IMG/VR virus record: IMGVR_UViG_3300002056_000004
Span: 1 to 52,787 of that record
Length of the DNA stretch: 52,787 nt
DNA from: a virus
Direction: 5' to 3' (one strand)
The notes beneath the pieces were generated by a model, which saw nothing but the letters and a program-made list of their open reading frames with translations, was not told the DNA's origin and did not search any database. The translations under genes were made by a program, and so were the position numbers. Below, piece by piece: positions 14,709 to 52,787 of the stretch. Every line of letters starts with the position of its first letter. The first letter of the stretch is position 1.

Positions 14709-15149
14709 TTGGCAAAAAACAACATAAGAAATCTTTTGTATATGACTGCTCGTCAGGCAGAAGAGGTTTTTGGCTTGCACCATACGACTATGAAGGGTCG
14801 TGACTGTGAGGTTACTCGGATTGATGATGCGGATAATTACCTTGTGGCCGATGTTTTGGATAAGTGTTTTGACCTAATTGCTGAAAAGCGCAGTGATGCG
14901 GCTGTTGATTTGAAGGCTGAAAAGACAGCGCAGGAAATCCGAAAGTTAAAAATCGAAAACGATATGAAGGAAGGCGTACTTGTTCTGGCGGCTGATGTTG
15001 AAGAAGGTTATTTGAGGCGGGCGCGTGAGGTTGTTGATGTTCTCGATACTATGCTCATGGAAATAAAAAAGCGTGATCCGGATATTCCGCAATCAACCCT
15101 TGATACTGTGAACATAGTTATGACTGAGGTTCGCAACCGTGCTTTCTGA
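14709..15149 (+). CDS. Terminase small subunit (Nu1-like)
   Basis: Sits directly before the gpA-like large subunit. N-terminal HTH-like TARQAEEVFGLHHTTMKG, then a coiled coil as in lambda Nu1. TTG start at 14709 or ATG at 14742. Confidence 0.6.
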   Translation: MAKNNIRNLLYMTARQAEEVFGLHHTTMKGRDCEVTRIDDADNYLVADVLDKCFDLIAEKRSDAAVDLKAEKTAQEIRKLKIENDMKEGVLVLAADVEEGYLRRAREVVDVLDTMLMEIKKRDPDIPQSTLDTVNIVMTEVRNRAF

Positions 15150-16962
15150 ATTGGACAATGACAAGCCCTATCAGTTGGCTAAATCAAGCCTTGCTATCGG
15201 CAAAGTTCCTGAGCCTTTAACCGCTTCCCAGTGGGCTGATAATCATTTCTATTTGTCGTCTGAAAGTTCTAACACTTCGGGCAAGTGGAAAACCATACCT
15301 ATTCAGGTGGCGATATTAAACGCCATGGGTAATGATGCGATTGAGAAAGTTGACTTTTTCAAACCAACCCGATTTGGCGGTACAAAAATGGACGTTGCCG
15401 CCATGTTCTATTTGATTGAGCATAAGCGTAGGAATATCTGTTTTTATCAGCCGTCTAAAGGTGATAGTGATGAATTTGTAAAGTCTGAAATACAGCCTTC
15501 TTTAAGGGATTGCCCGCTCGTTGAGGATCTGATGATTGATAAGTCAGAAAGTAATTCCTACAATACACTAAGCTACAAGGCTTTTCGTGGTTGCGTTGCT
15601 TATTTTAAAGGCGGTCATTCACCAAGTTCATATGAGCGCATGACGCTTGATGCGGTAATTCTTGACGAGTTGGACTTGTTCAATACAGACGTATCAAAAA
15701 GGGGCAATCCAACTACACTGAGTTATGCCCGCGTTCGTAATTCACTTTTTAAAAAGCAGATACAGACTTCCAAACCCACGCTTGAGGGGTTTTCGCTTAT
15801 TCAAAAATCATCAATGGCTGCAAATGACATTCTTGACTACAAAGTAAAATGCCCAGAGTGCGAAACGCACACGACTATTGAATGGGGCGGGCATGACGTT
15901 CAGTATGGTTTCAAGTGGAGCGAAAACGATCCTTCGACAGTAAAGCACTATTGCAAGGAATGCGGATCAGCATGGGATAACAGTTGCCTACATGAAGTAA
16001 GCAAGGGCGGTTATTGGGAAGGTGAAAACGGCTACAAGACTTACGACGCAATGGCTTGGTACAAGGATGGCGTTGAGGCTATTGCACCGCGCCATATAGC
16101 GTTCAGAACATGGTCAGGATATTCGCCGTTTGTTACTTGGCAGCAGATTGTAGAGGAATGGCTTGATTCCCAGGGTGACATTACCAAAATTCAAGCCTTC
16201 ATGAACAATGTGCTTACAAAGACCTGGAGCATTAAGCACAAGGGAACGATTACAGAGGCAATCATTGATGATATGCCCTTGGAAAAAGACCTTTCAAAAA
16301 TTGTGGCTGTCACGGCTGGGGTTGATGTTCAAGACGACCGTATCGAATTGCAGTATGCAGGATTTGACCAAGAGAATAATATATACGTGCTTGGTTATGA
16401 TGAGGTCAGGGGTGATATGGATACGGCTGAGCCTTATATCGAGATGGGGATGAGGATCATCGAATCACGTTTCCAGTGTGGCGATAATATACTGAGACCT
16501 GCTGTTGCTTGCATCGACACGCAAGGCCACAAGACGAAAACTGTGCATGAGTTTTTAAAACACAATGCGAATAACAAATCTGTTCGTTTCGTTGGCATCA
16601 ATGGTGTTGGTGGTGCTGATTACGAAATCTCTGACAAGGCTTCAACAAATCGAGACGTTAAGGGTTCCGTGTTTTATTCAATCGGCACGAATATTCTCAA
16701 ATACAAAATTTATGATGCGATCCGTAAATATGACCAGCCGAATGGGTCGTTCAGAATTTCTTATGATGCAAACCTGCCAAAAGATTACGCTAAACAATTG
16801 ACGGCTGAAAAGATGGAAATCAGGCGTATAAAGGGCGTTGATAAGATTGTATTCACAAATGACAGCCAAAGGCGAAACGAAGCACTCGATACGCTGGTCT
16901 ATTGTCTGGCAGCAAAGGCTTATATCAGGGATCATATGCGCGACGGAAGGCGGGTATTCTAA
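15139..16962 (+). CDS. Terminase large subunit, lambda gpA family
   Basis: 607 aa. N-terminal ATPase context ..SGKWKTIPIQVAILNAMGND..KPTRFGGTKM and a Zn-ribbon CPECE..CKECG as in the GpA family. GTG start. Confidence 0.85.
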   Translation: MLSELDNDKPYQLAKSSLAIGKVPEPLTASQWADNHFYLSSESSNTSGKWKTIPIQVAILNAMGNDAIEKVDFFKPTRFGGTKMDVAAMFYLIEHKRRNICFYQPSKGDSDEFVKSEIQPSLRDCPLVEDLMIDKSESNSYNTLSYKAFRGCVAYFKGGHSPSSYERMTLDAVILDELDLFNTDVSKRGNPTTLSYARVRNSLFKKQIQTSKPTLEGFSLIQKSSMAANDILDYKVKCPECETHTTIEWGGHDVQYGFKWSENDPSTVKHYCKECGSAWDNSCLHEVSKGGYWEGENGYKTYDAMAWYKDGVEAIAPRHIAFRTWSGYSPFVTWQQIVEEWLDSQGDITKIQAFMNNVLTKTWSIKHKGTITEAIIDDMPLEKDLSKIVAVTAGVDVQDDRIELQYAGFDQENNIYVLGYDEVRGDMDTAEPYIEMGMRIIESRFQCGDNILRPAVACIDTQGHKTKTVHEFLKHNANNKSVRFVGINGVGGADYEISDKASTNRDVKGSVFYSIGTNILKYKIYDAIRKYDQPNGSFRISYDANLPKDYAKQLTAEKMEIRRIKGVDKIVFTNDSQRRNEALDTLVYCLAAKAYIRDHMRDGRRVF

Positions 16963-17135
16963 TGTCTAAGGATTGCAATTTTTGCGGTGGCGATCGTATG
17001 GGTGTAAAAAACAAAAAGGGCGTTATTGCTTACTCGGAATCCAAACATGGCAGATATAAACTACCGCGATATTCCCCTGTTGATGAGCAGGACACCGCAG
17101 AAAATAAACAAGGCAGCAGCAGCAGCTCTGAATGA
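16962..17135 (+). CDS. Possible small ORF (57 aa, CNFCGG motif)
   Basis: ATG overlaps the terminase stop by 1 nt, but its 3' part overlaps the next ORF by 89 nt. Only one of the two readings may be real there. Confidence 0.3.
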   Translation: MSKDCNFCGGDRMGVKNKKGVIAYSESKHGRYKLPRYSPVDEQDTAENKQGSSSSSE

Positions 17136-17643
17136 GGTCGCATTCCAAGGCCGCAAGTCTGCAACGAATGCTGCTATCAGGGATATGGACTTCACGGGCA
17201 ACCCTTTCCGAGCGATAGGGTTTCAAATCGATAAGGCAAGAAGTGCCGGACGCCCTATAGAATCATCAATCTTTACAAATAGGAAATGGCTGCACTATCA
17301 CATTTCTGATCCCGGAACTCGGAAAGCTTCAAGCGGCATTAAGTTTCAAGGAAAACGTTATTTGCTTATTCCACATGAGAGGGCAAGCGGATTTTTCACA
17401 AAGAAGGGAAGGCTTAAGGCTAGCGCCAAGCGTGGATTCTTTATAGTTCGTCGCAGGTCTGGTCAGGTTATTGCGCTTCACAGAAAAAAAGGCAGTAAGC
17501 AGGTTAGCTATATTGGCGCTCTTGTTCTTGATGCTGCTCATAACAAGGATACTAATCCGGAAAAGCATATTTTCGCAACGCATAAGCGGATGGTGAATGA
17601 CCAATTCAGGAAAAACCTAAGAAGGCAGGGTTTGCGTAGGTAA
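17047..17643 (+). CDS. Highly basic hypothetical protein inserted between terminase and gpW-like gene
   Basis: About 198 aa, K/R-rich (..KKGRLKASAKRGFFIVRRRSGQVIALHRKKGSK..). Start uncertain (TTG 17026, ATG 17047, 17083 or 17179). Confidence 0.5.
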   Translation: MADINYRDIPLLMSRTPQKINKAAAAALNEVAFQGRKSATNAAIRDMDFTGNPFRAIGFQIDKARSAGRPIESSIFTNRKWLHYHISDPGTRKASSGIKFQGKRYLLIPHERASGFFTKKGRLKASAKRGFFIVRRRSGQVIALHRKKGSKQVSYIGALVLDAAHNKDTNPEKHIFATHKRMVNDQFRKNLRRQGLRR

Positions 17644-17652
17644 AAACAGAAA

Positions 17653-17680
17653 CGGGATTGGCTTTGCAACGCCAATCCCG
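17653..17680. other. 10-bp perfect inverted repeat (stem-loop) in an AT-rich gap
   Basis: CGGGATTGGC tttgcaac GCCAATCCCG. The T-rich run is on the minus-strand side only (tttctgttttt). Confidence 0.5.
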
Positions 17681-17884
17681 TAAAATTACTAGCCCAAAAT
17701 ATAGAAAAGACCAGTAATTACTTCAATAGCGCAAATGCTTTGATTTGGCAACATCATTGGCTTATTAACGACAAATTATTAAATGTCTTAAATGCGACAC
17801 ATATTCTATAAGCGACAAATGCCAAGTTTTTTGGAAGATAATCAATAATGTCGTAAAAAGAACACCAAATACATTGGTGGTCTT

Positions 17885-18199
17885 ATGCCTAGCACTCTTG
17901 ATGAAGTTATTGAACGTTGCAAATGCACCCGTCCAAATCCTTGCGACGTGGTGTGTCAGCTTGAGAATTTTCAACTTGATTTGGTAATGAATAAAGGTTT
18001 ACGCTCCTATGAAATAGGCGGTGAAAAGTTCACCATATTCAGGCCAAATATGACCGAATTACAGGCACTTATTAATCATTACAAGAAATTATGTGCTGAT
18101 TGCGCTGCTGGTGGCGATGGGATAACCCGTCGTCGGGCGAATAAGGTATTTATCCACTCAGATGCGCGAGTTAGACGCGGTTCAGGTTGTGGTTGCTGA
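17885..18199 (+). CDS. gpW-like head-tail joining protein
   Basis: 104 aa immediately before the portal gene. YEIGGEKFTIFRPNMTELQALINHYKK parallels the lambda gpW core. Confidence 0.55.
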   Translation: MPSTLDEVIERCKCTRPNPCDVVCQLENFQLDLVMNKGLRSYEIGGEKFTIFRPNMTELQALINHYKKLCADCAAGGDGITRRRANKVFIHSDARVRRGSGCGC

Positions 18200-18201
18200 T
18201 T

Positions 18202-19827
18202 ATGAGTTTTGGTGCTGCAAATATCGCTCATAAAGATGTCGCAAAATGGCATTCAACGCTTGCTACCATGCGCTCAGACCTATGCGATAAGTGGGCAATT
18301 GAAAACAGGGCTTATGACCTATATCGCAACAACGACTATATGCGCGGTATGGTTGAAAAGCAGGTTGATGCAATCGTCGGTCCCAAAACCAATGTTCAAC
18401 TTATGCCAAATCATAAAGAATTTGGAGTAAGCAAGCAGGAAGCGCAAGCGTGGGCAAGGAATGCGGAGGATATTCTGCATTCTTACATTCATTCCCCTGA
18501 AAATTGGGTCTCATCAAATCGCGTTATGGACTTTACGCAATTTGCACGAAGCCTTGCCAGATATAATATCCTGAGTGGTGAGATGATGGTCTCAAGGGAG
18601 TGGCGACCTTCCCCCATGGGTATCAATACATGCTTTAATCTGATTTCTCCTAAACGTGTGCGCAATCCTAACATCGGTTCGTTTGGCGCAAGTCAGCCGC
18701 GTATGGTTGAAGGCATTGAGTTAGACCGCTATGGCGCTCCGAAAGCATATCGTATTGAACAAATCCGCGCTGGCGAAACAACTATTCAGTCAAACGGGAT
18801 GGAATTTAAGCGGGTTGCAATCAGAAATTCATTCGGGTTCATGCAATTTTTTCACGTATTTGAGCCAATGATGGCAGAATATACGCGCGGAATATCTCAG
18901 ACGGCTGCTTCATTGATACGTCACAAAAAAGTAGAGCGCCTTGAGGATGCTGATCTGGACAAGGCAATCATTACTTCAAACTACGCGATAACTATTACGT
19001 CCGACGAAAGCCCTGAGAGCGTCTCTGATATGCTTGCTGGAATTGATAGTGACCGTGGTAGTGATTTTGCGCTTCCTTCAAATCAGGAGGCATCTGAGGA
19101 CGCTGATAAAGCGTATAAACGTGACCAAATACTAGGCAGAATTCTTGAAGAGCGTTTTATTGAGACGCATGGCGCTCAATTAATGCACTTGTTTAAAGGG
19201 GAGGATGCAAAAGTCCTTGCAGCTCCTAACACAATTGGCACGATGGACAGCTATGTAAGCAATCACAAGAGAGCAATCGCTAACTCTTTGGGCATGGGGT
19301 ACGAATTCGCAACTGGCGACTTCAAGGGGCTTAATTTCTCTGCTGGTCAGCTTACGATGGGTATCAATGACCACAACATAAACATCAAGCGCAAAGTTTA
19401 TATTCATAAGGTCTTGAGGCTTATGGTTCGCTCCCTTCTTGATGAGCTAATCAGCCGTGGCATTATCCCGCTATTGGGCAACAAGCCATACTTCCCCAAC
19501 AAGGAAGCTTACACACGTTGCGAATTTACAGGCGCAAGACGCGTTCATGTAGATCCCGTTAAGAAATCCCGTTCGCAGGTGATGGATTTGGCATCGGGTA
19601 CAACTTCAAGAACCCAAATTGCAGAAGAGAATGGCGATGACTTCGAAAGCATTATCGAGTCACGTGGTCAGGAAGCCCTGCAAATTCTCACAACGATTGA
19701 TGCTGCTGCCGAGTCCGAGGGGCTAAAGCTAACAGCCGCGCAAAAACTCAAGGTAATTACGGACGTTATTTCGACTGAAACAGTTGAATTGCCACCAGAA
19801 ATGGAAATGGAAGCAGAAGAAACATGA
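18202..19827 (+). CDS. Portal protein, lambda gpB family
   Basis: About 541 aa, sitting between gpW-like and S49 protease genes as in lambda. ATG 18202 follows the gpW stop; the track ORF starts at TTG 18187. Confidence 0.8.
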   Translation: MSFGAANIAHKDVAKWHSTLATMRSDLCDKWAIENRAYDLYRNNDYMRGMVEKQVDAIVGPKTNVQLMPNHKEFGVSKQEAQAWARNAEDILHSYIHSPENWVSSNRVMDFTQFARSLARYNILSGEMMVSREWRPSPMGINTCFNLISPKRVRNPNIGSFGASQPRMVEGIELDRYGAPKAYRIEQIRAGETTIQSNGMEFKRVAIRNSFGFMQFFHVFEPMMAEYTRGISQTAASLIRHKKVERLEDADLDKAIITSNYAITITSDESPESVSDMLAGIDSDRGSDFALPSNQEASEDADKAYKRDQILGRILEERFIETHGAQLMHLFKGEDAKVLAAPNTIGTMDSYVSNHKRAIANSLGMGYEFATGDFKGLNFSAGQLTMGINDHNINIKRKVYIHKVLRLMVRSLLDELISRGIIPLLGNKPYFPNKEAYTRCEFTGARRVHVDPVKKSRSQVMDLASGTTSRTQIAEENGDDFESIIESRGQEALQILTTIDAAAESEGLKLTAAQKLKVITDVISTETVELPPEMEMEAEET

Positions 19828-21083
19828 CCAATATCAAAGAGGAATCTATTCAGGCATTTAAGAAGTTTGCAAATGGCGAAGTTGTTTCATGCCACTCGCT
19901 CGACGATGCGCTTGCTAGTGTAGACTTTGTGGCGCTGTCTGAGTTTGATGGTGAAGGCTACCACCCAGGATATTGCGTTGATAACGGCATCGCGACGATT
20001 AACATCGTCGGCCTTTTAATACCGGACATTCAAGAGGATATAACAGAATTCGGAATCACTGGTTATCCGATGGTTTCCCGTTATTTGGCGCAAGCTGAGG
20101 CTGATAATTCTGTTCAGGGGATTGTTCTGGATATTGATAGCGGTGGCGGCTATGTGCGCGGCCTTGACGCTGTTATTGAGGAAATCGAAGCAACTGCCAA
20201 GCCCGTTCGTGCTTATGTGCGCAATGCTTATTCAGCCGCTTACAAGATAGCAAGCACTTGTGAAAAACTTGTCGCAAATAAGCAATCTGGAGCGGGTTCA
20301 ATTGGCGTTTATCTTGAATTTTATGATTACTCAAAAGCGGTTGAGAATTCAGGAATTTCTATTGAAGTTTTCAAATCTGGATTTTGGAAAGGCGCATTCA
20401 ATAACGCTATTCCATTGACCCAAAGAGAGCGCGAGAAACTTCAAGAAGAGGTTGATTTTGAAGCAGAATTATTCTTTGAACACGTATCCAATAAGCGCGG
20501 AATACCAACCGATACCATCCGCGAATGGGAGGGCAATTCGTGGCAAGGGCAGGAAATTTTGACACTAAATTTAGTTGATAGTATTTCTACAACTATTGAC
20601 GCTGTTTTTAATGACGTAAATAGGATACCAGAAATGGATGCAAACAAACTAATTGGAAAGTCAGGCGCTAAGGCTGAAGAAGCTGCTACTGGTACTCCAG
20701 ACATTCAAGCCCTGATTGACCAAGCAAAAGCTGATGCTGTTGCTGAATATCAGGAAAAGGCCAAAGAAGCTCAGGCTGAGGCTTTTGACCGATCAAAAGC
20801 GATTTTCTCAAGCGCAGCTCCAGAAGAAATCAAAACGCTTCTTGCAAGTGATGAATTCGAGGGCATCAAGGGCGAGTCTTTGAATAAGCTTATCGTTGCG
20901 ATTGAAGCGAATACTTTCGCCAAGGCGATGGAAGAAGATGGCGGCGCTGGCGTTGCCGAGGCTTCTGGCGAATTCAAAAATGACCCAATCGATGACGCAA
21001 CTGGCAAGCAAACTGCTGAGCAGAAAAAGTCTTATGAAGATGCGTTGGCAAGAATTCAAGAATCCGGAATTGGAGCAATTTAA
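19824..21083 (+). CDS. S49-family (ClpP/SppA-like) prohead protease with scaffold-like C-terminal half (lambda gpC/Nu3 type)
   Basis: GIVLDIDSGGGYVRG...AYSAAYKIASTCEKLVANKQSGAGSIGV. The Ala/Glu/Lys-rich helical C-terminal third is scaffold-like. Confidence 0.8.
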   Translation: MTNIKEESIQAFKKFANGEVVSCHSLDDALASVDFVALSEFDGEGYHPGYCVDNGIATINIVGLLIPDIQEDITEFGITGYPMVSRYLAQAEADNSVQGIVLDIDSGGGYVRGLDAVIEEIEATAKPVRAYVRNAYSAAYKIASTCEKLVANKQSGAGSIGVYLEFYDYSKAVENSGISIEVFKSGFWKGAFNNAIPLTQREREKLQEEVDFEAELFFEHVSNKRGIPTDTIREWEGNSWQGQEILTLNLVDSISTTIDAVFNDVNRIPEMDANKLIGKSGAKAEEAATGTPDIQALIDQAKADAVAEYQEKAKEAQAEAFDRSKAIFSSAAPEEIKTLLASDEFEGIKGESLNKLIVAIEANTFAKAMEEDGGAGVAEASGEFKNDPIDDATGKQTAEQKKSYEDALARIQESGIGAI

Positions 21084-21481
21084 TGAGCAACTGTAACTGC
21101 GAATTTCCTGTGCTGGAAAGCGTTGAAATCACAATCTCTGACGACAGCCTAAAGTGTGCTGAAGTTCAGTGCAAAATGAAGCAGCGCATTACTGGCAAAG
21201 ATGGCGAGACATTTGAAATCGGCATGCCTGTAACCCTTGACCCTGCTACTGGTGAAATCAGCCCTGATCCTACGGGTACTGCTGATAACCTTTGGGGCAT
21301 TTCAATGGTTTCAAAAACCGCAACTGCTGACGACCCTATGATTCTTATCATGAGGGACGGTGTTGTCTGCTGGAAACAAATCGCTGCTGCGGCTGGCTTG
21401 GATGCCACTGACGCTGCTGTTTATTGGCCGGTTGCCATGGCATTTCGCCAAATCGGAATTTACGTTGAGGAGTCCCTATAA
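21083..21481 (+). CDS. Head decoration protein (gpD-like)
   Basis: 132 aa between protease and capsid genes. GMPVTLDPATGEI..LWGISM..DGVVCW pattern. Confidence 0.6.
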   Translation: MSNCNCEFPVLESVEITISDDSLKCAEVQCKMKQRITGKDGETFEIGMPVTLDPATGEISPDPTGTADNLWGISMVSKTATADDPMILIMRDGVVCWKQIAAAAGLDATDAAVYWPVAMAFRQIGIYVEESL

Positions 21482-22572
21482 TGAACCGCGTATGTGACCG
21501 TGAAGTAGGTCTTATCAACTTCATCGAAAAGCAAAAAATAGACCTTGGTTCTGATTTTGCTTACAATAATTTCTTCACCAAACGCCGCGACGAATCTGAG
21601 TTCGTTGAACTTCGCAACTATGTCGAGGGCGACATTATGCCAGCGTTTCACTCTGGCCAGTGTGACCTCCCAAACATCGTTAAAAACCCTGACCGCTCAG
21701 TGACAATTGACCGATACAACTTCAACCTGATCCGTGAGGAAGCAAAAGTTGATGGTTGTCGCGTTGATGAAGAACGTGTTGATGAGCGTGGCGAATACTA
21801 CCGACCTAACCGTCGTTACGACCTTGCCTACAATCGTTCTGGCGCTACTTTGGTTCAAAGAATCCGCAAGCTGAAATATGCGCAATCCTGGGAGCTTTTG
21901 AAATACGGTGCTTATACACTTTATTCTGACGTGGATAAGGAAATGGGCATTCTCGACTTTAAGCGCGATGATGCCCTTGCAAACATTGACCTGACTGGCA
22001 CTGAGAATGATTGGTGCGCAGCCTGTGCAGAGCCAATGGAAGTTATTGAGGAAATTGTTCAGAACATGGCGCGTTGTAATGCTGCCATGGGTAATGTGAA
22101 CATTATTCACTCAAATACATCGTGGAAAGCAATCCAGATGCACGAGACACTTGAGGCAAAACTTGCCCAAAACCCTCGTCAATTCTCTGGCTTTGAATCG
22201 CTTGTAAACACTCAATTTGCTGGCGTGTTTTTCCAAGGCGCTACTAATGGCGGTCGGTTCCGTCATTGGACTGCAAATGGACAATACTACAGTTCAAACC
22301 ATGAACTTACTGACTACGTTCCTGAAGGTTACGTTCTTATCGCAATGAGCGGAAGCTTTGGCGGCCTTGACCTGATAAATCCATGGTCAAGTGACTACCG
22401 TGAGCGCCTTCCTGATGGCGTCGATTTCTTCATGAATGAAGATTACGACCGCAAGTGCCGCACGACTGACCAGTGGATCGAGCATCGTAGCTTGATGCTT
22501 CCAACGAACGTCAATGGCGCTGTTCTTGTGAAGGTTGTTTCTGACGACTGTGAATTCTGCAAGGAGTGTTAA
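21481..22572 (+). CDS. Major capsid protein, lambda gpE family
   Basis: 363 aa, with the size, position and sequence architecture of Phage_cap_E. ATGA-type coupling to the decorator gene. Confidence 0.7.
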   Translation: MNRVCDREVGLINFIEKQKIDLGSDFAYNNFFTKRRDESEFVELRNYVEGDIMPAFHSGQCDLPNIVKNPDRSVTIDRYNFNLIREEAKVDGCRVDEERVDERGEYYRPNRRYDLAYNRSGATLVQRIRKLKYAQSWELLKYGAYTLYSDVDKEMGILDFKRDDALANIDLTGTENDWCAACAEPMEVIEEIVQNMARCNAAMGNVNIIHSNTSWKAIQMHETLEAKLAQNPRQFSGFESLVNTQFAGVFFQGATNGGRFRHWTANGQYYSSNHELTDYVPEGYVLIAMSGSFGGLDLINPWSSDYRERLPDGVDFFMNEDYDRKCRTTDQWIEHRSLMLPTNVNGAVLVKVVSDDCEFCKEC

Positions 22573-37098: not shown

Positions 37099-37131
37099 GA
37101 ATGAGAAAACTTTCCAAACGAGGTAAAGAAA

Positions 37132-45457: not shown

Positions 45458-45818
45458 TGTTCATTCTCCTTTTGACTGTTTGGTTATCCACAGACAGAAA
45501 ATATCCGTGGGTAAAGGGGTGGGGATTAGTAAATTTCAAACCACTTCCAATCAGGGTCAGTAGCCCTAAGTTCTGCATGGTATGTATTTCGGGACAGTCG
45601 TATAAATGGACTGTCTCTCAAAACCTGAAAATGCCACTCGCCAAAACGAATATTTATGTAAGTGTTGCTCATTAGATATTTTCTCCAGTTTGATGATAAT
45701 TCCCTCTTGCATCCATTCGCGCTTGTGGTACTAAGCACCTGTTCAAAGCGTTCAAGTTGTGCAGTACCCGCGCGGGGCGAAAAGAACAAAACCAGTAAGA
45801 CCTTGATTTTATTAAGTT

Positions 45819-45858
<40 letters not shown>

Positions 45859-45974
45859 ACGATACCCTCTATACAAAACCCCTGATTTCCAACGTTTTTC
45901 ATATTCGATATTCTACTTTTGTTCACGTTTATCTGTGCAGTTTTGTGAAGTAACCACGCGGTACTTGTGCGGGG

Positions 45975-46151
45975 TCATGAGTTTTTATCACCATGCTTTT
46001 GCCAGTGCATAGTTGCGTTCATGAGAGCTACTTGCGGGGTCTCGCCAAGCCCATGATGGTCAAAGCCATCTCCAATGATATCAGCTTGCCATGGTTTGGG
46101 TGAGTTGTCTGGATCTCTGTCGTGAATGTAAACTTTAACTTCGATTTTCAT
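45975..46151 (-). CDS. Small hypothetical protein (58 aa) between int and attP
   Basis: ATG 46151 lies 1 nt after the int stop. MKIEVKVYIHDRDPDNSPKPWQADIIGDGFDHHGLGE.. Confidence 0.45.
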   Translation of the reverse strand: MKIEVKVYIHDRDPDNSPKPWQADIIGDGFDHHGLGETPQVALMNATMHWQKHGDKNS

Positions 46152-46152
46152 T

Positions 46153-47229
46153 TTAAAACGCCTCTGCAGCTTTTGATTGATAATCAGGGTGATGATGAAA
46201 ATACACCCGCTCAATGGTTTGTACTGATGTACTCAAGAAACTTGCGGCCTCTGCAATATCCACTCCGGCTTGCATCAGCCATGTTGCGCATGTGTGCTTT
46301 AGAGTATGAACCTTGATATGCTGATCATCAAGTCCGGCACGTTTCAAAGCATTGCCCCATGCGGTTGCATTCGCGCGTTTAACAGGCTTGCCCCAATGGT
46401 GAATGACATAGGGTATTTCGTCCCTCTGCCAGCGTCTCAGGTGAGGCAATAGCCGCCTTGGTATCTTGAGTGGCCTTCTGCGCTTCTTCGTCTCTGTGTG
46501 CCCTTCAGGGGCGCGGTAAATGACGCCTTGTTCAAGATCAACATGGCCTCCGATTGTGTTTGCCCTCCATTGTAGGGCTGTAATGGATTTCTCCCTCGTG
46601 CCGGTATAGACCGCGATAAGAAAGAACCTTGCCAAGTGACGGGCTGTATAAACGCCTGTGAGGCCATCCTTGGCTTTCCATAGTTGCCATAGGATAAGTG
46701 CCGCCTCGCTTCTGGTGAGCCACCTGTGGCGCGATGGTGGCTTGTTTGGGATTGTCACAAGCGGAACGTAATCCAGAACATGCTCACGGTGGTAGTGGTT
46801 CAGTGAGGCGCGTAACACTGTCAGTTCGTTTCGTGCCATTGGCTCGGTTGTCCGTTGCGCTGTATAAGCTCTGCAATTCGCGCCATTGATTTGCGAAACA
46901 TTCATAGCGCCAAAGAAGTCATTGAGCCTCCCGATCTGAGCAAGCAGTTCACGGCCTCTATGCGCCTCATTACTTGGATTTTTATATTCCATGTAAACCA
47001 TCAGGACATCTGCGATTTTGATGGAAGCTGGATTACCTCCGCTTCGTTCGGCTTGCTTGGCTTGTCCAAGGTAATCTTGGAGCATCCTGTTCGCGCTCTC
47101 AACCTCGCGCTCAAGGCATCCTGTGCGGATACGCTTTGCCCCGTCTCGGATTTCCCATGTTCGCACTTTTCCGTTTGCGGTTTTGTCGGTTCGGATTGCA
47201 AGTCTGGCTGGTTTTCTTGGCTGTCCCAT
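46153..47229 (-). CDS. int: Tyrosine integrase
   Basis: C-terminal catalytic region ..KVHTLKHTCATWLMQAGVDIAEAASFLSTSVQTIERVYFHHHPDY. The N-terminus MGQPRKPARLAIRTD..TWEIRDG..IRTG is typical of alphaproteobacterial phage integrases. Confidence 0.9.
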   Translation of the reverse strand: MGQPRKPARLAIRTDKTANGKVRTWEIRDGAKRIRTGCLEREVESANRMLQDYLGQAKQAERSGGNPASIKIADVLMVYMEYKNPSNEAHRGRELLAQIGRLNDFFGAMNVSQINGANCRAYTAQRTTEPMARNELTVLRASLNHYHREHVLDYVPLVTIPNKPPSRHRWLTRSEAALILWQLWKAKDGLTGVYTARHLARFFLIAVYTGTREKSITALQWRANTIGGHVDLEQGVIYRAPEGHTETKKRRRPLKIPRRLLPHLRRWQRDEIPYVIHHWGKPVKRANATAWGNALKRAGLDDQHIKVHTLKHTCATWLMQAGVDIAEAASFLSTSVQTIERVYFHHHPDYQSKAAEAF

Positions 47230-47447
47230 TTCTCAATCATTCCCTGTACGTAAGAAGGTTTGGTAAGATCACGGTTGCCAACTCGGAACGTGCGCAACCG
47301 CCCTGCATCGCGCTCTTTGCGCAATCGTGAGACTTTGCACCAGTCTCCGACTAGCTGACAAGCCTCCGGTAAGGTTATTGGCTTTTCCACAATTTCTCCA
47401 CAGGGTTGTTCACAGGCTGGGGTATTAATGGTGGCGGGTTTGTTCAT
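47001..47447 (-). CDS. Excisionase-like HTH protein; the ORF tail overlaps int by 229 nt in another frame
   Basis: ITLPEACQLVGDWCKVSRLRKERDAGRLRTFRVGNRDL is an excisionase/MerR-type HTH. The stop is only reached at 47001, inside int. Confidence 0.55.
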   Translation of the reverse strand: MNKPATINTPACEQPCGEIVEKPITLPEACQLVGDWCKVSRLRKERDAGRLRTFRVGNRDLTKPSYVQGMIEKWDSQENQPDLQSEPTKPQTEKCEHGKSETGQSVSAQDALSARLRARTGCSKITLDKPSKPNEAEVIQLPSKSQMS

Positions 47448-47462
47448 GGGTTTCTCGAGCGA

Positions 47463-48353
47463 TTAGTTAGAAAGTTTCAATAGTTTGATTGCATCAAAAT
47501 CCTGGACACCACCGCCAACGCGCTTGGTTGTATAGAACAAGACATAAGGCTTTGCTGAATAAGGATCACGCAATACGCGAACGCCTGCACGGTCAACAAT
47601 CAAATAGCCACGATTGAAATCACCAAAGGCAATCGGTGTTGTACCTCTGCCAATATCTGGCATGTCCTCAGCTTCCACCACGCCAAAGCCCATCAAACTT
47701 GCAGCCTGCCCTGCTGCGGCAGGCACCTGCCATAGATAGTTGCCATCGACATCCTTAAGCTTTCTGACTTCCGCTTGCGTTTTACGGTTCATGACCCAAT
47801 TGGCATTTTGGCGATACCCTGCCTTCAAGGAATAAACTAGGTCAATTAAAGTATCACACTCTAGCTTGCCGCTAACCGTGCCCAGATTACCCCACGACCA
47901 ATTATTTTCATCCGCCGTTGGATGGGTCAGGAAACCACGCGGTTTGTTAACCCCGTCACCATTGATAAAGGCAGCACTTTCCTGTTCTGCGAAAGCCTGC
48001 TCCACTTCACTTGCTATCCAGGCATCGACATCAACTGCAGCATCATCCAGGAGTTGTGAAGTCGCTGCCGGCATTGCGTAAAGCTCCATTGTAGGAAACT
48101 GCAATTCATGCGTTGCTGATACGGGTTTTTTGAAATCATTGTTAGAAGTTTTTGTAATACCAGAAATAGACCTTATTGGAGATGCTGCCAATAATGCTCT
48201 ATCAATCTCTCTATCAGCCTCTACAGGAATCAAAAACCCGCTATCTATAGCCACATTATTTGGTATCGCTTTAGCTTCGATTGCGCGAAGATTTTCTTCG
48301 ATCCCCTTTCGTATGTAATTCTCAAAGGCCTGTTTATGGTCTGTAGACATCAT
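47463..48353 (-). CDS. HK97/GTA-type major capsid protein paralogue lacking the delta (scaffold) domain
   Basis: AFENYIRKG..ELYAMPAATSQLLDDAAVDVDAWIASEVEQAFAEQESAAFINGDGVNKPRGFL..LIDLVYSLKAGYRQNANWVMN..LMGFGVVEAEDMPDI..IAFGDFNRGYLIVDR..VLRDPYSAKPYVLFYTTKRVGGGV: the Phage_capsid pattern in only 296 aa. Confidence 0.8.
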   Translation of the reverse strand: MMSTDHKQAFENYIRKGIEENLRAIEAKAIPNNVAIDSGFLIPVEADREIDRALLAASPIRSISGITKTSNNDFKKPVSATHELQFPTMELYAMPAATSQLLDDAAVDVDAWIASEVEQAFAEQESAAFINGDGVNKPRGFLTHPTADENNWSWGNLGTVSGKLECDTLIDLVYSLKAGYRQNANWVMNRKTQAEVRKLKDVDGNYLWQVPAAAGQAASLMGFGVVEAEDMPDIGRGTTPIAFGDFNRGYLIVDRAGVRVLRDPYSAKPYVLFYTTKRVGGGVQDFDAIKLLKLSN

Positions 48354-48574
48354 TCATCTCCTTGTGGTGTTACAAGCTCAAGCATATAATCTGGAAATAT
48401 TTGTATGCATCCGGGTTCTGCATATGAATGTACGCAAGCACCTGATTCACCTGTAACTGGATTATAATAAGACCCGCAAACACCGCCTTTAAAACGGTAC
48501 GGAGGTGCTGTGCCATTAGCGCGATTTTTTCTATGAACAACCGCGCCATGCTCAAATTGTGAATGCCAAGTCAT
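48350..48574 (-). CDS. Hypothetical protein (74 aa)
   Basis: Ends ..TPQGDE, with AAGGAGATGA supplying the SD and ATGA overlap for the capsid-like gene. Confidence 0.5.
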   Translation of the reverse strand: MTWHSQFEHGAVVHRKNRANGTAPPYRFKGGVCGSYYNPVTGESGACVHSYAEPGCIQIFPDYMLELVTPQGDE

Positions 48575-48798
48575 TTGTCATCTCCTTGCGGTGGTGAGAG
48601 GGGGTCAACATTCTCCCAGCTTGGAGCGTAAAGAAGCACAGTAGTTCCATCCTTAGGCGCTGTCTCAATCGGTTGACACTGCATACGCTCTAGCCTGTCA
48701 GCAGCTTCCTGCATGATAAAGCTGTATTCATATGCACGTAGCTTTTCGATTAGCTGTACATCGGACATGGATTGAAGGTATGTTTTTTTGTCTGTCAT
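48571..48798 (-). CDS. DUF551-like small protein
   Basis: IETAPKDGTTVLLY matches the DUF551 core. Ends ..PPQGDDK with the same SD-bearing junction. Confidence 0.5.
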   Translation of the reverse strand: MTDKKTYLQSMSDVQLIEKLRAYEYSFIMQEAADRLERMQCQPIETAPKDGTTVLLYAPSWENVDPLSPPQGDDK

Positions 48799-48865
48799 TT
48801 AGTATTGTCCTTGTTCGCAGTAACGACATGTTCGTATCGTTTTTGATATTAATTTACAGGGAAAA

Positions 48866-49309
48866 TTACCAACTTCTATGACGCTCACTAACGCTTTCCA
48901 TGCCGTCATACTCTTGTATTTCCCATGCTATGCCTTCTGGAATTTCCGTTATAGTAATTTTAGCAAATTGCCCGCTTGCAGATTCACCTAGCAACTCAAT
49001 AACTGAAATTAAATCAGGATCATCGCGTTCTAAGTCGCTGTCACAAATTGTATAATCCTGATAAAATTTATTACTCTTGCGTTGTTGTTCGATTGAGGCT
49101 TTGCCCCATTCGTCCTGACTCAATATTCCAACACGATTCTCTTTAGGTATTGTCCAGTATATTGTCGTCATAGATGATTGTTTTTCTGGAAATAATTTCA
49201 TGCCTTTTAATTTGGCATATTCGAGCATTGCTTTTTCAGACAAGCCAAACCCACCATAACATTTATTTGTTGCTATTTTTTGCATCTTCTGTTCCCTATT
49301 CTCTTTCAC
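48866..49309 (-). CDS. Hypothetical conserved phage protein (147 aa)
   Basis: NKCYGGFGLSEKAMLEYAKLKG ... RDDPDLISVIELLGESASGQFAKITITEIPEGIAWEIQEYDGMESVSERHRSW. This is a recurrent phage early-protein pattern of unknown function. Confidence 0.6.
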   Translation of the reverse strand: MKENREQKMQKIATNKCYGGFGLSEKAMLEYAKLKGMKLFPEKQSSMTTIYWTIPKENRVGILSQDEWGKASIEQQRKSNKFYQDYTICDSDLERDDPDLISVIELLGESASGQFAKITITEIPEGIAWEIQEYDGMESVSERHRSW

Positions 49310-49330
49310 GGCCTTGGTATTACACAGCCG

Positions 49331-49738
49331 TCATTTCCTATGCTCCTGTATTGCCTTCAAGGCCGCGCTTTCCGCTTCAAATAGTTTGCGTGGTGGCAAG
49401 CTGTTCTTTTCAATCCGGCTCGCTCTTTGGGATTTATCAAACCCGCGTGATTTCAGCTTGCCTTTAGACCGTATCGCGCCTGTAGACTTGTCTCGCTGAC
49501 GGTCTGCTTTTCTGGTTTTTTGAACATCGACTTTTGTCTTGGGCTTGTGGCAAACCTTGCAAAGCAACCGGCCGTTTGCAGGGCTATTATCGCCTCCCAG
49601 TGCGCAAGGAAGGATATGGTCAACTTCACCCTCGCCAGTTTTAAGAACGGCACCACAGGCTTTGTTTTCGCATTTCCCGTTTGCACGATCTATGATCTGC
49701 TGGCGTGTCTTGCGAGTGAACTCCTTACGCTTGGCCAT
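49331..49738 (-). CDS. HNH endonuclease
   Basis: CENKACG..EVDHILPCALGGDNSPANGRLLCKVCHKPKT. Confidence 0.8.
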   Translation of the reverse strand: MAKRKEFTRKTRQQIIDRANGKCENKACGAVLKTGEGEVDHILPCALGGDNSPANGRLLCKVCHKPKTKVDVQKTRKADRQRDKSTGAIRSKGKLKSRGFDKSQRASRIEKNSLPPRKLFEAESAALKAIQEHRK

Positions 49739-49741
49739 GGC

Positions 49742-50077
49742 TTAACCAACCTTTGCCATGGCTCTGAAGTTAGACTGACAAGTACGCCATGCCTCAATAA
49801 CCAAGGTGCATTTGTTCCGTTCATTACGGTAGTATTCATCGCGTTCAACCGCTTCGTGATAGCCCTTAATCGCATCCTGGTAGATTTGCGATAACGTAGC
49901 CTTATGCTCGCGCTCTGCTATAGTGCCTTGCGCATCTATGAAGGCTTGCGACTTGGCGCGCTTCGCCTCATACTCCCTGCGCTCTCGCATTGCTCTTGCA
50001 GCAGCAGCGGGTTCAACAGATTCCTTGAGTTGATCAAATGCAGCTTGAACGGTTTTGTCTTGAATTACGAATGTCAT
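49742..50077 (-). CDS. Hypothetical helical protein (111 aa)
   Basis: ORF in the early-left operon. No motif recognised. Confidence 0.55.
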   Translation of the reverse strand: MTFVIQDKTVQAAFDQLKESVEPAAAARAMRERREYEAKRAKSQAFIDAQGTIAEREHKATLSQIYQDAIKGYHEAVERDEYYRNERNKCTLVIEAWRTCQSNFRAMAKVG

Positions 50078-50097
50078 ATATCAATCCTATTTCGTGT

Positions 50098-50132
50098 GAT
50101 GGACGGGTCATTCAGGGCGAGACCCGTCCATC
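50098..50132. repeat. 12-bp perfect inverted repeat between ssb and the next gene
   Basis: GATGGACGGGTC attcagggcga GACCCGTCCATC. No U-tract on either strand. Confidence 0.7.
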
Positions 50133-50157
50133 GGGGCTTTAACGCGGGGGTAACGCG

Positions 50158-50601
50158 CTAAAATGGAATCTCATCATCAATATCGCTGTGATTTGATGAT
50201 GACTGAGATTGATCTTGATAACCGCCAGACTGGTTATTCCCGCCGCTATCGTCTCGCTTGTCGAGTAACTGCAAAACACCGCCATAGCCCTGCAGAACGA
50301 CTTCAGTTGAATATCGATCCTTGCCTTCATTGTCTTGCCATTTGCGAGTTTGCAACTGGCCTTCAATATAGACTTTGGAGCCTTTCTTTGCGTAATTCTC
50401 AATCACCTTGCAAAGCCCTTCACTGAAACATACGACACGATGCCATTCAGTCTTTTCCTTGCGTTCGCCTGTATTTTTATCCTTCCAGGTATCGGAAGTT
50501 GCGAGGCTTAGGTTAGCGACAGGTCGTCCATCCTGAGTGCGCTTGATATCAGGGTCTGAACCCAACCGGCCTAGTAGTATTACCTTGTTTACGCTTGCCA
50601 T
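50158..50601 (-). CDS. ssb: Single-stranded DNA-binding protein
   Basis: [42 protein letters not shown].. OB-fold pattern and an acidic tail DDEIPF. Confidence 0.92.
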
Positions 50602-51227
50602 TATTCAGCCGCCTCCTTTGGTAGTAGTTGTTGAATTTTGTCGTTCATATCCGCAATGAAGTCCCTCACGTGATCTTCGATTGATATAATCAACTCATGG
50701 TCGGCATGAATGCGCCTGACGTGCATTTGAAGGCTTGCAGGTAATCTTGGGTCATATGAAACAAAGTCGCACCACTTGCGTTCTGTGCAAGCCATTTGCC
50801 ATTGCATTTGCTTCGTGTAATTGCCTTTGATTGACCCTCCCAAAAGTGTTTCCAAGTGGGTTGCAGTGTTTGGGCATTTGATTTCTACAAGCCCGTCATT
50901 ACCGACTAATCCATCTGGGGATGCACCGCTTTCCTGAATGGATGGATGCGAGACAAAGCCAACTTCCTGCACTGTAACATCATTCATAAATTCGTAGTTT
51001 GCACGTGCTTCGGCTTCGACCTCGTTACCGCGCTCCATGGCTGGCGATTTGAACGTTTCCGCGACTTCACCAGTAAGGCGTTCTGCAATCAATTGGGCTT
51101 CATAGTTTTTTCGACCTGCGCCCCATCCTGACTTCGTTTTTGCCATAAGGTCTGCAATGCGACTGGCAGTAACCTTACCAAGCCTTTCCTTAAACCATTC
51201 ATCGGAACCTTGAATAATGTTATCCAT
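50601..51227 (-). CDS. YqaJ-type (lambda Exo-like, PD-(D/E)XK) recombination exonuclease
   Basis: [22 protein letters not shown] ... [17 protein letters not shown]. Confidence 0.85.
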
Positions 51228-51948
51228 TGGAACCGCCTTTCTTGGCCAAAAGCAATGCCCTCACTTTTTCAAAATCAGAGCCTCGGATTTCGTCAATGCT
51301 TGGGACTTTCATTATCTGTAGAAGCTTTTTTGTGTCAGAGTTTGTTTCCTGTATAAGGGCAAGCAATTCTTCTTTTTGCTCTTCCTCAATCACCCCATAT
51401 TTGACAGCGCCAGCGCCATCATCATCATTGGTGGTGGAGAGTCCAAGCGCCAAAGTAAGTGTGTACCTTTGAAGGTAGGTAATTGCAGATCCGATAGCTT
51501 GAATTGCGTTCTTGTTGCCTGACGTATCTGTTGGAGCGTCAAGGGTGGTTTCCTCTGAATAGCCATCTTTGTGAGACAAAACGCATGTAACGCTAACACG
51601 GTCGCCCTTGTTTGATCTAAATCGATACGATAGCCCAAAACTCGTCAAAACAGGGTCAACTTGCTCTGATATGTTTGCAAGGTCTGCATAGTTTGAATTG
51701 TGGCCTTTCCGGTTTTTGAAAATCGGTTTGATTTCTGATTTTGCGCCAGATATAGCCGCGTCGAAAGATTTTCGGCTTTGATTTGCGTCCCAACGCTCTT
51801 GCAGGGTCATAAGCTTTTCAATAACCTCAATTCCAGCGCCACTTGAAACGGCCTTGTTAATCATTTCCATTGGCGTTAGAGCGTTACCAACGTCTTGTTG
51901 ATTTATTTTTGCTACTTCACTCATTTGATTTCCTTTATGTTCAGCCAT
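51220..51948 (-). CDS. ERF-family single-strand annealing protein
   Basis: ..NSNYADLANISEQVDPVLTSFGLSY...AIGSAITYLQRYTLTLALGLSTTNDDDG matches the ERF superfamily pattern. Confidence 0.8.
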   Translation of the reverse strand: MAEHKGNQMSEVAKINQQDVGNALTPMEMINKAVSSGAGIEVIEKLMTLQERWDANQSRKSFDAAISGAKSEIKPIFKNRKGHNSNYADLANISEQVDPVLTSFGLSYRFRSNKGDRVSVTCVLSHKDGYSEETTLDAPTDTSGNKNAIQAIGSAITYLQRYTLTLALGLSTTNDDDGAGAVKYGVIEEEQKEELLALIQETNSDTKKLLQIMKVPSIDEIRGSDFEKVRALLLAKKGGSNG

Positions 51949-52100
51949 CACTTGCCCTCACTCTTCGCGTTCTCTGCATTAAGTCGAACAGCCTCGGAAA
52001 GAGCATCACTTCGGGTCGGCATTTGCTTGTAAGGCTTACCGGCCTTCATTACCGTTCGATTGATATCAACGCTGTATATTGGCTTTGGAGCATCAGTCAT
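51948..52100 (-). CDS. Small hypothetical protein (50 aa)
   Basis: ATG 52100 forms an ATGA overlap with the upstream small ORF. The track ORF extends to 52154. Confidence 0.4.
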   Translation of the reverse strand: MTDAPKPIYSVDINRTVMKAGKPYKQMPTRSDALSEAVRLNAENAKSEGK

Positions 52101-52222
52101 TTGACACCTCCCATAACCAATCCAAGGCCAAGGATTCCAATGGTCACAATCCATGCTGAAACAAGCAGGGCGATATAGCCGAGTGTATTACAGCGTTTTG
52201 GGGTAGGGGCGCGGAAACTCAT
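52097..52222 (-). CDS. Small TM peptide (41 aa)
   Basis: MSFRAPTPKRCNTLGYIALLVSAWIVTIGILGLGLVMGGVK. ATGA overlaps at both ends. Below the track threshold. Confidence 0.4.
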   Translation of the reverse strand: MSFRAPTPKRCNTLGYIALLVSAWIVTIGILGLGLVMGGVK

Positions 52223-52560
52223 GACTGACGCGCCTCCAATGCTTTGACCACTATTTTGTCGTGGTCTTTGTCTATTTGGGATTGAACCGCGCTAAACAGA
52301 TAAGCAGTTTGCTCATTGTACTGAAGCACCTCTGCTTGCTTGTAGAGCGGTTTGTATTCGTCTGGTTCGTTAACCAGATAAAGACCGTCAATGCTAACCT
52401 CGGAATTGTCATAAGCGTCCATGCTGACAATGATTTCAGCCCAAAGGGCATTGCAGGCTATGATGATTTCGTACCCGTTTTGAGTAAGAACTATCTCATC
52501 AAAGTTCATGCGCAATTCGTGATGGTCGAATATGTCTTGCTTTACTTTTGCGTAACCCAT
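52219..52560 (-). CDS. Hypothetical early protein (113 aa)
   Basis: Second gene of the leftward operon. No motif recognised. Confidence 0.6.
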   Translation of the reverse strand: MGYAKVKQDIFDHHELRMNFDEIVLTQNGYEIIIACNALWAEIIVSMDAYDNSEVSIDGLYLVNEPDEYKPLYKQAEVLQYNEQTAYLFSAVQSQIDKDHDKIVVKALEARQS

Positions 52561-52571
52561 TTTCTTATTTC

Positions 52572-52787
52572 CTATGCTTGCTTCAGGATTTGAAGGAATG
52601 ATTGAGCTTGACGCTCAATTTCGACATCGGCAGCACCGGCGGTACGGGCGGCATAGGCGGCAAAACGGGCGGCATAGGCGGCTAAACGGGCGACATAGGC
52701 GGCATAGGCGGCGGCATCGGCGGCGGTACAGGCGGCGGCATAGGCGGCATAGGCGGCGGCATCGGCGGCGGTACAGGCGGCGTCATG
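52572..52787 (-). CDS. C-terminal part of the Ala-rich-repeat protein (continuation of 493-1; the last 49 nt duplicate 1-49)
   Basis: In-frame reading ..AAACTAADAAAYAAYVARLAAYAARFAAYAARTAGAADVEIERQAQSFLQILKQA, with stop TAG at 52574-52572. Confidence 0.7.
   Translation of the reverse strand, partial: HDAACTAADAAAYAAYAAACTAADAAAYAAYVARLAAYAARFAAYAARTAGAADVEIERQAQSFLQILKQA
52694..52783. repeat. Tandem 45-nt coding repeat (two units) within a longer GCC/GCG-rich degenerate repeat region starting near 52640
   Basis: cataggcggcataggcggcggcatcggcggcggtacaggcggcgg at 52694-52738 and again at 52739-52783 (last base differs). Shorter cataggcggc subunits lie upstream. Confidence 0.85.

Follow-up and report, generated by a model that had tools for sequence, protein, structure and literature searches.

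A gene transfer agent capsid homologue without scaffold towers or E-loop in the early region of a phage: a possible poison of capsid assembly

The uncultured phage sequence IMGVR_UViG_3300002056_000004 (52,787 nucleotides (nt), analysed over its whole length and called the window below), from a temperate phage with a probable marine alphaproteobacterial host, carries a short open reading frame (ORF) for a 296-amino-acid (aa) protein of the HK97 capsid family. The closest relatives of this protein are capsid proteins (g5) of alphaproteobacterial gene transfer agents (GTAs), yet it lacks the scaffolding coiled coil and the E-loop that those proteins possess. The capsid-like gene is a recombinant mosaic with a GTA allele. 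We suggest, at a probability of roughly 0.4, that its product is a non-assembling capsid mimic that acts as a dominant-negative poison of GTA-type capsid assembly.

Identity of the capsid-like gene

The gene was found at exactly the coordinates given in a first-pass annotation, which had been made from the sequence alone:

47463..48353, minus strand: capsid-like ORF, 296 aa; HK97/GTA-g5-type core without scaffold coiled coil and without E-loop

A second ATG at 48350 provides an alternative start and would give 295 aa. Membership of the HK97 family, as first claimed, is borne out by PF05065 (Phage_capsid; 3e-76, residues 81-293, 256.9 bits against a cut-off of 24.2), by TIGR01554 of NCBIfam (HK97-family major capsid; 7.5e-94, 315 bits against a cut-off of 27.5) and by phrog_10 of PHROGs (1e-62), and all the peptide motifs quoted for it are present in the protein. 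The best solved structure was the capsid of RcGTA, the GTA from Rhodobacter capsulatus (6TB9, 9e-76). Query residues 5-78 matched residues 63-138 of this structure and residues 83-294 matched residues 164-383, and from these blocks a missing N-terminus and a gap of ~21 residues are evident. No family of the PADLOC-DB defence models was found at E<=0.01 for the capsid-like protein or for the two small ORFs upstream of it (ORF74 and ORF75).

Among 8000 scored homologues, the sole short member was the phage's own protein (P0001). All other top homologues were capsid proteins of ~419 aa, sharing 57-71% identity by BLASTP and at most 76% in the alignment. The nearest GTA g5 (P0002) is 88% identical in amino acids to the core of the 296-aa protein. 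Both P0002 and the second of the two nearest relatives looked up (P0006) lie in canonical RcGTA-type clusters, in the order terminase, portal, DUF6107, S78 protease, capsid, connector, head-completion, tail genes, DUF2460, BR0599, NlpC/P60 and GTA_TIM/Rcc01698_C, with chromosomal flanks (e.g. PBP1a, response regulator). In the best 80 matches from species-representative genomes, the named organisms were all Hyphomicrobiales (metagenome-assembled genomes (MAGs) of the Rhizobiaceae group, Paramesorhizobium, Nitratireductor, Pseudochrobactrum and Phyllobacterium), the rest being MAGs of unclassified (Alpha)proteobacteria. The best 80 IMG/VR matches were mostly sequences of ~14-15 kb, presumably GTA clusters. 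Matched spans in both sets were ~950-980 nt, and none carried the deletions described below.

The affinity with alphaproteobacterial GTAs is thus far stronger than had been guessed, the nearest relatives being g5 of canonical clusters and one run of 110 nt being identical to a GTA allele. Because these relatives are g5 genes of GTA clusters, the gene is a xenologue derived from GTA g5 and not a copy of the phage's own capsid gene, and the original label of 'paralogue' has to be dropped. No other GTA gene was found in the window, and nucleotide homology to the GTA contigs is confined to codons 83-291.

Retained and missing parts of the capsid protein

The 296-aa protein was aligned with 65 relatives to give a 66-sequence alignment, to which HK97 gp5 was added for the mapping of positions. 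The gene is divided as follows, L002 being one of the fetched GTA loci, with a metagenomic allele:

48270..48353, minus strand: codons 1-28, C-terminal scaffolding (delta) remnant; aligns with HK97 ~74-103 and ends at the predicted maturation site
48108..48269, minus strand: codons 29-82, N-arm and proximal E-loop strand; strongly diverged
48102..48113, minus strand: codons 82/83, junction of the E-loop deletion; GTA nucleotide homology begins exactly here
47871..48107, minus strand: codons 83-161, distal E-loop strand, spine helix and G-loop region
47817..47870, minus strand: codons 162-179, rewritten A-domain loop and helix start; holds a 4+4-aa deletion
47484..47816, minus strand: codons 180-290, tract like the L002 GTA g5 allele, interrupted by the hypervariable loop codons 233-240 (47634-47657)

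Four gaps are private to the 296-aa protein in this alignment. The N-terminal gap covers ~95 residues that are present in 65/65 relatives, where they make up the coiled-coil part of the scaffolding domain (the helical FDEFMEAFEAFK...EKMNRIN...DEQK region). The protein had first been described as devoid of the scaffold domain and as starting at the mature N-terminus. The coiled coil is indeed gone. However, ~28 pre-cleavage residues are kept, and the start lies that far ahead of the predicted maturation site K28/A29, which aligns with K103/S104 of HK97 gp5. In Prohead I of HK97, the capsomer interior is lined by a helix of residues 76-88, and the P-domain sheet gains a strand from residues 92-97, whilst the remainder of the 103-residue scaffold makes up flexible coiled-coil towers, which touch each other and the portal; if the scaffolding domain is absent, the HK97 capsid protein aggregates (PMC10275583). 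By this mapping, the 296-aa protein would keep the core-bound segment of the scaffold and lose the towers.

The second gap removes exactly 21 aa of the E-loop, in frame, where the relatives read GPATGWvaETdaRpETASPTL. It maps to HK97 ~157-176, including the cross-linking K169, and the placing of RcGTA residues 148-152 in an 'extended loop' (PMC7296036) is consistent with this. A shortening of about 20 aa had been anticipated; the difference is 21 aa from every one of the 65 aligned relatives, and the matched stretch is full length in all 160 fetched GTA loci. Both this deletion and the loss of the scaffold coiled coil are seen against HK97 gp5 itself. The remaining two gaps, of four residues each (4+4 aa, codon ~162), lie in the loop after WSWGNLG and had not been noticed before. 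They map to HK97 ~243-253, just ahead of the A-domain helix 254-265, and codons 233-240 map to HK97 315-323. GTA alleles vary strongly by nature in both of these loops (162-179 and 233-240), and so only the 8-aa deletion is special in them.

Uneven divergence and mosaic structure

Over residues 83-296, identity to the GTA consensus is 85.5%, compared with a mean of 84.7% for genuine GTA capsids (32/65 score at least as high as the query). Over residues 1-82, by contrast, it is 42.7%, compared with a mean of 72.9% and a minimum of 61% for genuine GTA capsids. Residues 5-78 hold eight of the nine sites at which the query departs from a column conserved at >=90%. No fetched GTA gene is homologous in nucleotides to codons 1-82 (46% aa identity); the homologous stretch runs from codon 83, exactly at the 3′ edge of the E-loop deletion, to codon ~291. 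Matches to residues 1-82 always fell in the post-scaffold region of HK97-type capsids, and a search for a donor among 1.84 billion cluster representatives gave nothing above 53% identity.

Within the homologous part, codons 83-161 show ~83% nt identity and are equidistant from the GTA alleles L002, L005 and L087, with a synonymous divergence (dS) of 1.5 and a nonsynonymous to synonymous ratio (omega) of 0.03 against L002. Codons 180-232 are 93.5% identical in nucleotides to L002, compared with 81.5% for L087 and 78% for L005 (dS 0.33, omega 0.10 against L002). Codons 241-290 reach 98% to L002, compared with 87% for L087, with a dS of 0.12 and four synonymous and no nonsynonymous differences. 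Runs identical to L002 comprise a perfect 110 nt at 47524-47633 and another of 53 nt. Codons 162-179, 233-240 and 291-296 are saturated at both classes of site against L002. Amongst codons for conserved amino acids, 30% differ from L002 in the core and 66% in the N-terminal part (Fisher p=6e-5), whereas in real GTA pairs the same measure is ~42% in both regions. Polarised by close alleles, 21 core changes are specific to the query and none to L002; 16 of these 21 cluster in the two loops and the C-terminal tail. The 21:0 polarity and the recombination in blocks temper the view that the core is evolving at no greater rate than genuine GTA capsids.

The simplest reading of the L002-like tract is a recent gene-conversion tract, brought into a pre-existing phage-borne gene from a g5 nearly identical to that of L002. 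Because the tract is internal and flanked by more diverged homologous sequence, repeated exchange is favoured over a single end-joined capture. The position of the E-loop deletion at the edge of homology would fit either an old recombination joint or a heterology that limited conversion.

Three other accounts of the gene were considered and rejected. Pick-up by aberrant excision, in the manner of lambda-bio, does not suit a gene that lies beyond ORF148 and int from the expected attP, has no host DNA flanking it and carries its GTA-identical tract internally. A chimeric assembly artefact was set aside, the identical protein being found on three ~52.8-kb contigs from three sources (which may share one sample) and the junctions being gene-precise and in frame. 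Lastly, the gene is not compositionally foreign, with a GC content of 45.8% against 44.5% for the phage. Separately, int and ORF148 (46001-47447) have a GC content of 51-52% against 44.5% in the rest of the phage, and the integration module looks compositionally foreign.

An accessory slot in the leftward early operon

The capsid-like gene is the 13th in an unbroken array of genes on one strand, which, beyond an S24 repressor and a ~450-bp intergenic region, takes in ERF, YqaJ, SSB, HNH and small ORFs and ends with ORF148 and the integrase. By its layout, this array is a lambda-like leftward early operon. The immediate surroundings are as follows, L167 being a fragment of a related phage:

48358..48363, minus strand: Shine-Dalgarno AAGGAG, in the last part of ORF74; spaced 4 nt from the first ATG and 7 nt from the second, both of which follow it
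48350..48574, minus strand: ORF74; TGA stop overlaps the capsid-like ATG (ATGA)
48571..48798, minus strand: ORF75, DUF551-like small ORF; ATGA overlap with ORF74
46150..47457, minus strand: ORF148 and tyrosine integrase block; 95.6% identical to L167

Searches with Pfam and PHROGs agree with the first-pass annotation that no portal, protease or terminase adjoins the gene, its neighbours being small early ORFs and int. The translational coupling reported there is also present, ATGA-type overlaps joining ORF75, ORF74 and the capsid-like ORF. A scan for terminators was uninformative.

Homology to L167, whose integrase is 98% identical, ends at 47457, 6 nt past the capsid-like stop codon. Between its HNH gene and ORF148, L167 has three different small ORFs and no capsid-like gene. 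Since a close relative does without the gene and the boundary is gene-precise, the gene is cargo in a hypervariable accessory slot of the operon and, as had been proposed, stands outside the head module. No close DNA or protein relatives of the phage were found among GenBank phages, and a scan of IMG/VR with the integrase returned no relatives.

Several further observations concern this region. ORF75, ORF74 and a 133-aa ORF of L167 all end in ...PPQGD(D/E), with the stop overlapping the next ATG (48350-48365, 48571-48590; L167 ~700-714). At these ends, CAAGGAGATGA.ATGA supplies the Shine-Dalgarno of the next gene, and it may be a conserved boundary sequence that promotes the shuffling of cassettes in the slot. 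ORF74 weakly resembles dihydrofolate reductase of the R67/DfrB type, with matches in Pfam (E=0.0013) and NCBIfam (E=0.0007) that lie far below the cut-offs; this probably reflects only a common small SH3-like fold. ORF148 (47001-47447, minus strand), a possible excisionase that had been labelled xis, matched no family. It overlaps the annotated start of int (46153-47229, minus strand) by 229 nt in another frame and is full-length in L167; therefore, either the start of int or the extent of ORF148 is mis-set. Directly downstream of int, L167 carries a 166-aa metallophosphatase gene (2275-2775) that is absent from the window at 45975-46150; this is a second variable slot, next to the integrase and the probable attP region.

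Likely host

The best match to the phage in GC content and tetranucleotide signature is L002, and we consider it probable that the host is an L002-type, ~44%-GC bacterium of the Rhizobiaceae group that carries a GTA. The GC content of L002 is 44.0%, against 44.5% for the phage. In tetranucleotide correlation with the window, L002 was the best of ~150 fetched loci (r=0.93), followed by its sister contigs and then by the L005 and L087 alleles, with the lowest locus at 0.36. Named relatives of the phage integrase are all Hyphomicrobiales, and L167 and L002 come from the same source study.

A parallel case in phage MW202777.1

A capsid match was present in 461 GenBank phage records, but only two phages contained two matching places. 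Salmonella phage 118970_sal3 was rejected as a case of an orphan capsid gene, its record being a tandemly duplicated prophage. MW202777.1 (L174) is a 45-kb freshwater siphophage with a GTA-like structural module, in which the following were found:

36934-38271, minus strand: capsid gene, 445 aa, in the head module
3714-4499, plus strand: second capsid-like ORF (UOF81702.1), 261 aa, among small early-region genes

The ORF for UOF81702.1 is intact, and its product is 30% identical to the phage's own capsid protein. Like the window protein, it is short, belongs to the HK97 family and is encoded in the early region, on the strand opposite to that of the head module. Both proteins are without an E-loop and without a delta domain, save for the ~28 residues that the window protein keeps. 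Moreover, the two A-domain loops altered in the window protein also bear deletions in UOF81702.1, of 21 aa and 5 aa. Unlike the window protein, it has no N-arm at all and bears a ~35-aa C-terminal tail. Being only 30-31% identical both to its own capsid protein and to the window protein, it is a derivation of its own, and a much older one. Close relatives of UOF81702.1 were found neither in GenBank phages nor in IMG/VR. Two independent derivations of a stripped capsid protein hint at a class, in a small sample (n=2).

The phage's own head module

15139..22572, plus strand: packaging and head module, about 25 kb from the capsid-like gene and on the opposite strand
15139-16962, plus strand: gpA-type TerL, confirmed
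18187-19827, plus strand: lambda-family portal, confirmed
19824-21083, plus strand: S49 protease, confirmed
132-aa and 363-aa genes at the gpD and gpE positions (363-aa gene at 21481-22572), plus strand: by synteny only

The phage had been described as building its head from a lambda-type set. This holds for the portal and the S49 protease, but the genes called gpD-like and gpE-like have no detectable match in sequence or fold. The order TerL, portal, S49, ~126-aa gene and ~380-420-aa gene is conserved in two related phages, and for this reason the gene at the gpE position is taken as a conserved head component. Pfam (E<=10), PHROGs, and PDB searched both with the sequence and with a three-sequence profile gave no capsid match for the 363-aa gene. 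An hhalign comparison of its product with the GTA capsid alignment found no detectable match, and one with lambda gpE gave 150 collinear columns at 23% identity with a probability of only 0.2%. A single-sequence AlphaFold2 (AF2) model had a predicted local distance difference test score (pLDDT) of 33.

The proteins at the gpE position (window 21481-22572, plus strand; L170 15467-16729; L171 16743-17882) are 363-420 aa long and conserved, with eight invariant cysteines that include a C-terminal CEPCVECxxCP-like motif. They may represent an unrecognised, or a disulfide- or metal-stabilised, capsid family. The phage also encodes a sheath protein. In the early-right/replication region, a 300-aa IS1595-type transposase-like gene (4619-5521, plus strand; Zn_ribbon_IS1595 and DDE_Tnp_IS1595) was found, which is also present in L171 (1757-2656).

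Proposed function and its alternatives

What the 296-aa protein retains and lacks is, on sequence grounds, what one would design as a poison subunit: the A/P core is kept and the parts that propagate the shell are gone. The intra-capsomer contacts and the core of the fold (spine helix, P-domain sheet and A-domain) would be preserved in a form nearly identical to the GTA capsid of the likely host, along with the short scaffold segment that packs against the core. The coiled-coil towers and the E-loop, which drive and lock the shell, are lost and the N-arm is rewritten. The protein would be made from the leftward early operon upon infection or induction, and would then co-assemble with full-length GTA-type capsid protein or titrate its partners. 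The target may be the host's GTA or competing phages with GTA-like heads, and the outcome would be assembly-incompetent capsomers. A more particular form of this proposal, in which the early subunit is copied from the host GTA, is kept in register by recurrent gene conversion and poisons procapsid assembly of the GTA or GTA-like phages in a marine host of the Rhizobiaceae group, seems to us unlikely to hold in all its parts.

A number of points weigh against a poison subunit. The product may be insoluble, because scaffold-less HK97 capsid protein aggregates (PMC10275583). The short form is a singleton, present in this phage only, on three contigs possibly from one sample, and no further short forms occur in the best 80 IMG/VR or the best 80 species-genome matches. 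Since the gene is a mosaic, its omega of 0.03-0.13 may mirror a history as a functional GTA gene rather than selection in the phage. GTA production is normally limited to a small subpopulation, which makes its relevance to the lytic cycle of a phage uncertain. Early expression had been attributed to a promoter at 558-604; the operon layout agrees with early expression, but promoter-like sites in 1-2300 and 45500-52787 do not exceed shuffled expectation and lend this promoter no support. Lastly, the structure of the 296-aa protein predicted from the 66-sequence alignment had a mean pLDDT of 53 and was set aside as too poor.

The strongest alternative is a non-functional relic of recombination, in which a capsid fragment lodged in a variable slot was patched, during infections, by homologous recombination with the host's GTA g5 and is carried passively. 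We regard this as somewhat unlikely, though still a serious contender. In its favour, the E-loop deletion falls exactly at the edge of nucleotide homology, as a recombination joint would, the short form is a singleton, and the close relative L167 does without the gene. The mosaic blocks and the near-identity to a GTA allele mean, moreover, that conservation could be imported without having been maintained. However, the 296-codon ORF is intact despite its patchwork divergence, its three indels are all in frame, and it has a proper Shine-Dalgarno and a start coupled to the upstream ORF. The unconverted N-terminal 82 codons still hold 13 family-invariant residues, despite saturated synonymous sites. 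Phage genomes also tend to purge useless DNA, and MW202777.1 has its independent, intact second capsid gene of similar architecture. The gene seems to have outlasted at least two recombination events, and on balance we think a functional gene likelier than a non-functional one.

A functional product could instead be a decoy or modulator of immunity or lysis control, the stripped core binding a host sensor of the HK97 fold and either blunting it or triggering it at the right time. Candidate sensors are Avs7/8/10-type STAND NTPases, CapRel-like systems and a LypABC-like NLR system linking GTA production to lysis. Avs7 sensors envelop a monomer of the HK97 fold and mainly engage its conserved A-domain (bioRxiv 10.64898/2026.01.04.697583), and the A-domain and P-domain are exactly what the 296-aa protein retains. 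In Caulobacter, GTA production has been proposed to activate an NLR-like lysis system (PMC13236601), which lends the lysis variant some support. A place among early accessory genes is typical of counter-defence cargo. Nevertheless, we consider a decoy improbable: no sensor is known in the likely host, no defence or anti-defence family was matched, and an early protein of the HK97 fold could activate sensors instead of blocking them. Furthermore, the likeness of the protein is to the host's GTA capsid rather than to the putative capsid of the phage itself, so that it would not mimic the phage's own trigger at the sequence level.

It is very improbable that the protein serves in the phage's own virion, as a vertex/penton subunit or as the true capsid protein with its scaffold supplied separately from the S49 protease/Nu3-type gene. 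The 363-aa gene at the gpE position does resemble no capsid family or structure, and lambda-type systems supply their scaffold in trans. Against this, the gene belongs to the early-left operon, which lies ~25 kb away from the head module and is read from the other strand; it has lost its E-loop, and its sequence tracks the host GTA allele and not the phage lineage. L167 lacks it between flanking genes that are 95.6% identical, and related phages conserve the head order including the gene at the gpE position. Lastly, an encapsulin-like nanocompartment or other self-assembling shell, one of the roles first suggested, is hardly credible: the likeness of an HK97 fold without a long scaffold is superficial, only PF05065 and no encapsulin family matched, the neighbours are small phage ORFs and int with no cargo gene, and the E-loop is missing. 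HK97 capsid protein aggregates when it has no delta domain (PMC10275583), and the GTA capsid to which the core is 88% identical depends on its own.

Comparison with known systems

GTAs occur widely in Alphaproteobacteria and consist of the products of domesticated genes for phage heads and tails. To our knowledge, almost nothing has been established about the interplay of resident or infecting phages with GTAs. A defective copy of the host's GTA capsid gene that exchanges sequence with the host gene is direct genomic evidence of contact between the two. Even if the gene were only a relic, it would document homologous recombination between phage and GTA and provide a handle linking an uncultured phage to its host. 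The poison hypothesis is concrete and testable. If it is true, dropping scaffold towers and E-loop whilst keeping the A/P core would be a design rule for engineered inhibitors of capsid assembly, and MW202777.1 suggests that 'stripped capsid' interference proteins may form a wider class. Our searches of the literature turned up neither a truncated GTA capsid gene carried by a phage nor an anti-GTA factor, nor any bacterial or phage example of a truncated capsid used as an assembly blocker.

The closest known system is the RcGTA capsid g5 (Rcc01687; 6TB9), of which the window protein is a clear homologue, parts of the gene being 98% identical in nucleotides to a GTA allele. Unlike RcGTA g5, the protein is without ~95 aa of scaffold, 21 aa of E-loop and 8 aa of an A-domain loop, its N-arm is rewritten, and its gene stands singly in a phage early operon instead of in a GTA cluster.

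In concept, the proposed function resembles that of the vertebrate Gag-derived transdominant restriction factors Fv1 and enJS56A1, in which a defective copy of a competitor's capsid protein blocks assembly; these, however, are eukaryotic. Were the window protein to poison GTA assembly, no anti-GTA factor encoded by a phage would precede it, and these Gag factors would have in it a counterpart from bacteria. A prophage-encoded inhibitor of virion assembly is also reported to let a resident element block a competitor at the assembly step.

The nearest precedent on a mobile element is Ccm of SaPIbov5, a horizontally acquired capsid homologue that redirects the assembly of another element and forms no capsids alone (PMC8569155). 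Both Ccm and the window protein are horizontally acquired capsid homologues of the HK97 fold, carried on a mobile element. Ccm, however, keeps a cleavable delta domain and its E-loop, is 24% identical to its target and is built in as pentons that resize the helper capsid (PMC8569155), whereas the window protein has neither scaffold towers nor E-loop, and its core nearly matches that of its presumed target. Moreover, the carrier of Ccm is a satellite that needs those capsids, whilst the carrier of the window gene, which lies outside the head module, is a full phage with head genes of its own. Capsid homologues on mobile elements that act on foreign capsid assembly are thus already known, and the window gene would be a new variant of them. 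If it is a poison, the principle of Ccm would extend from satellites to complete phages, and from the redirecting of assembly to its blocking.

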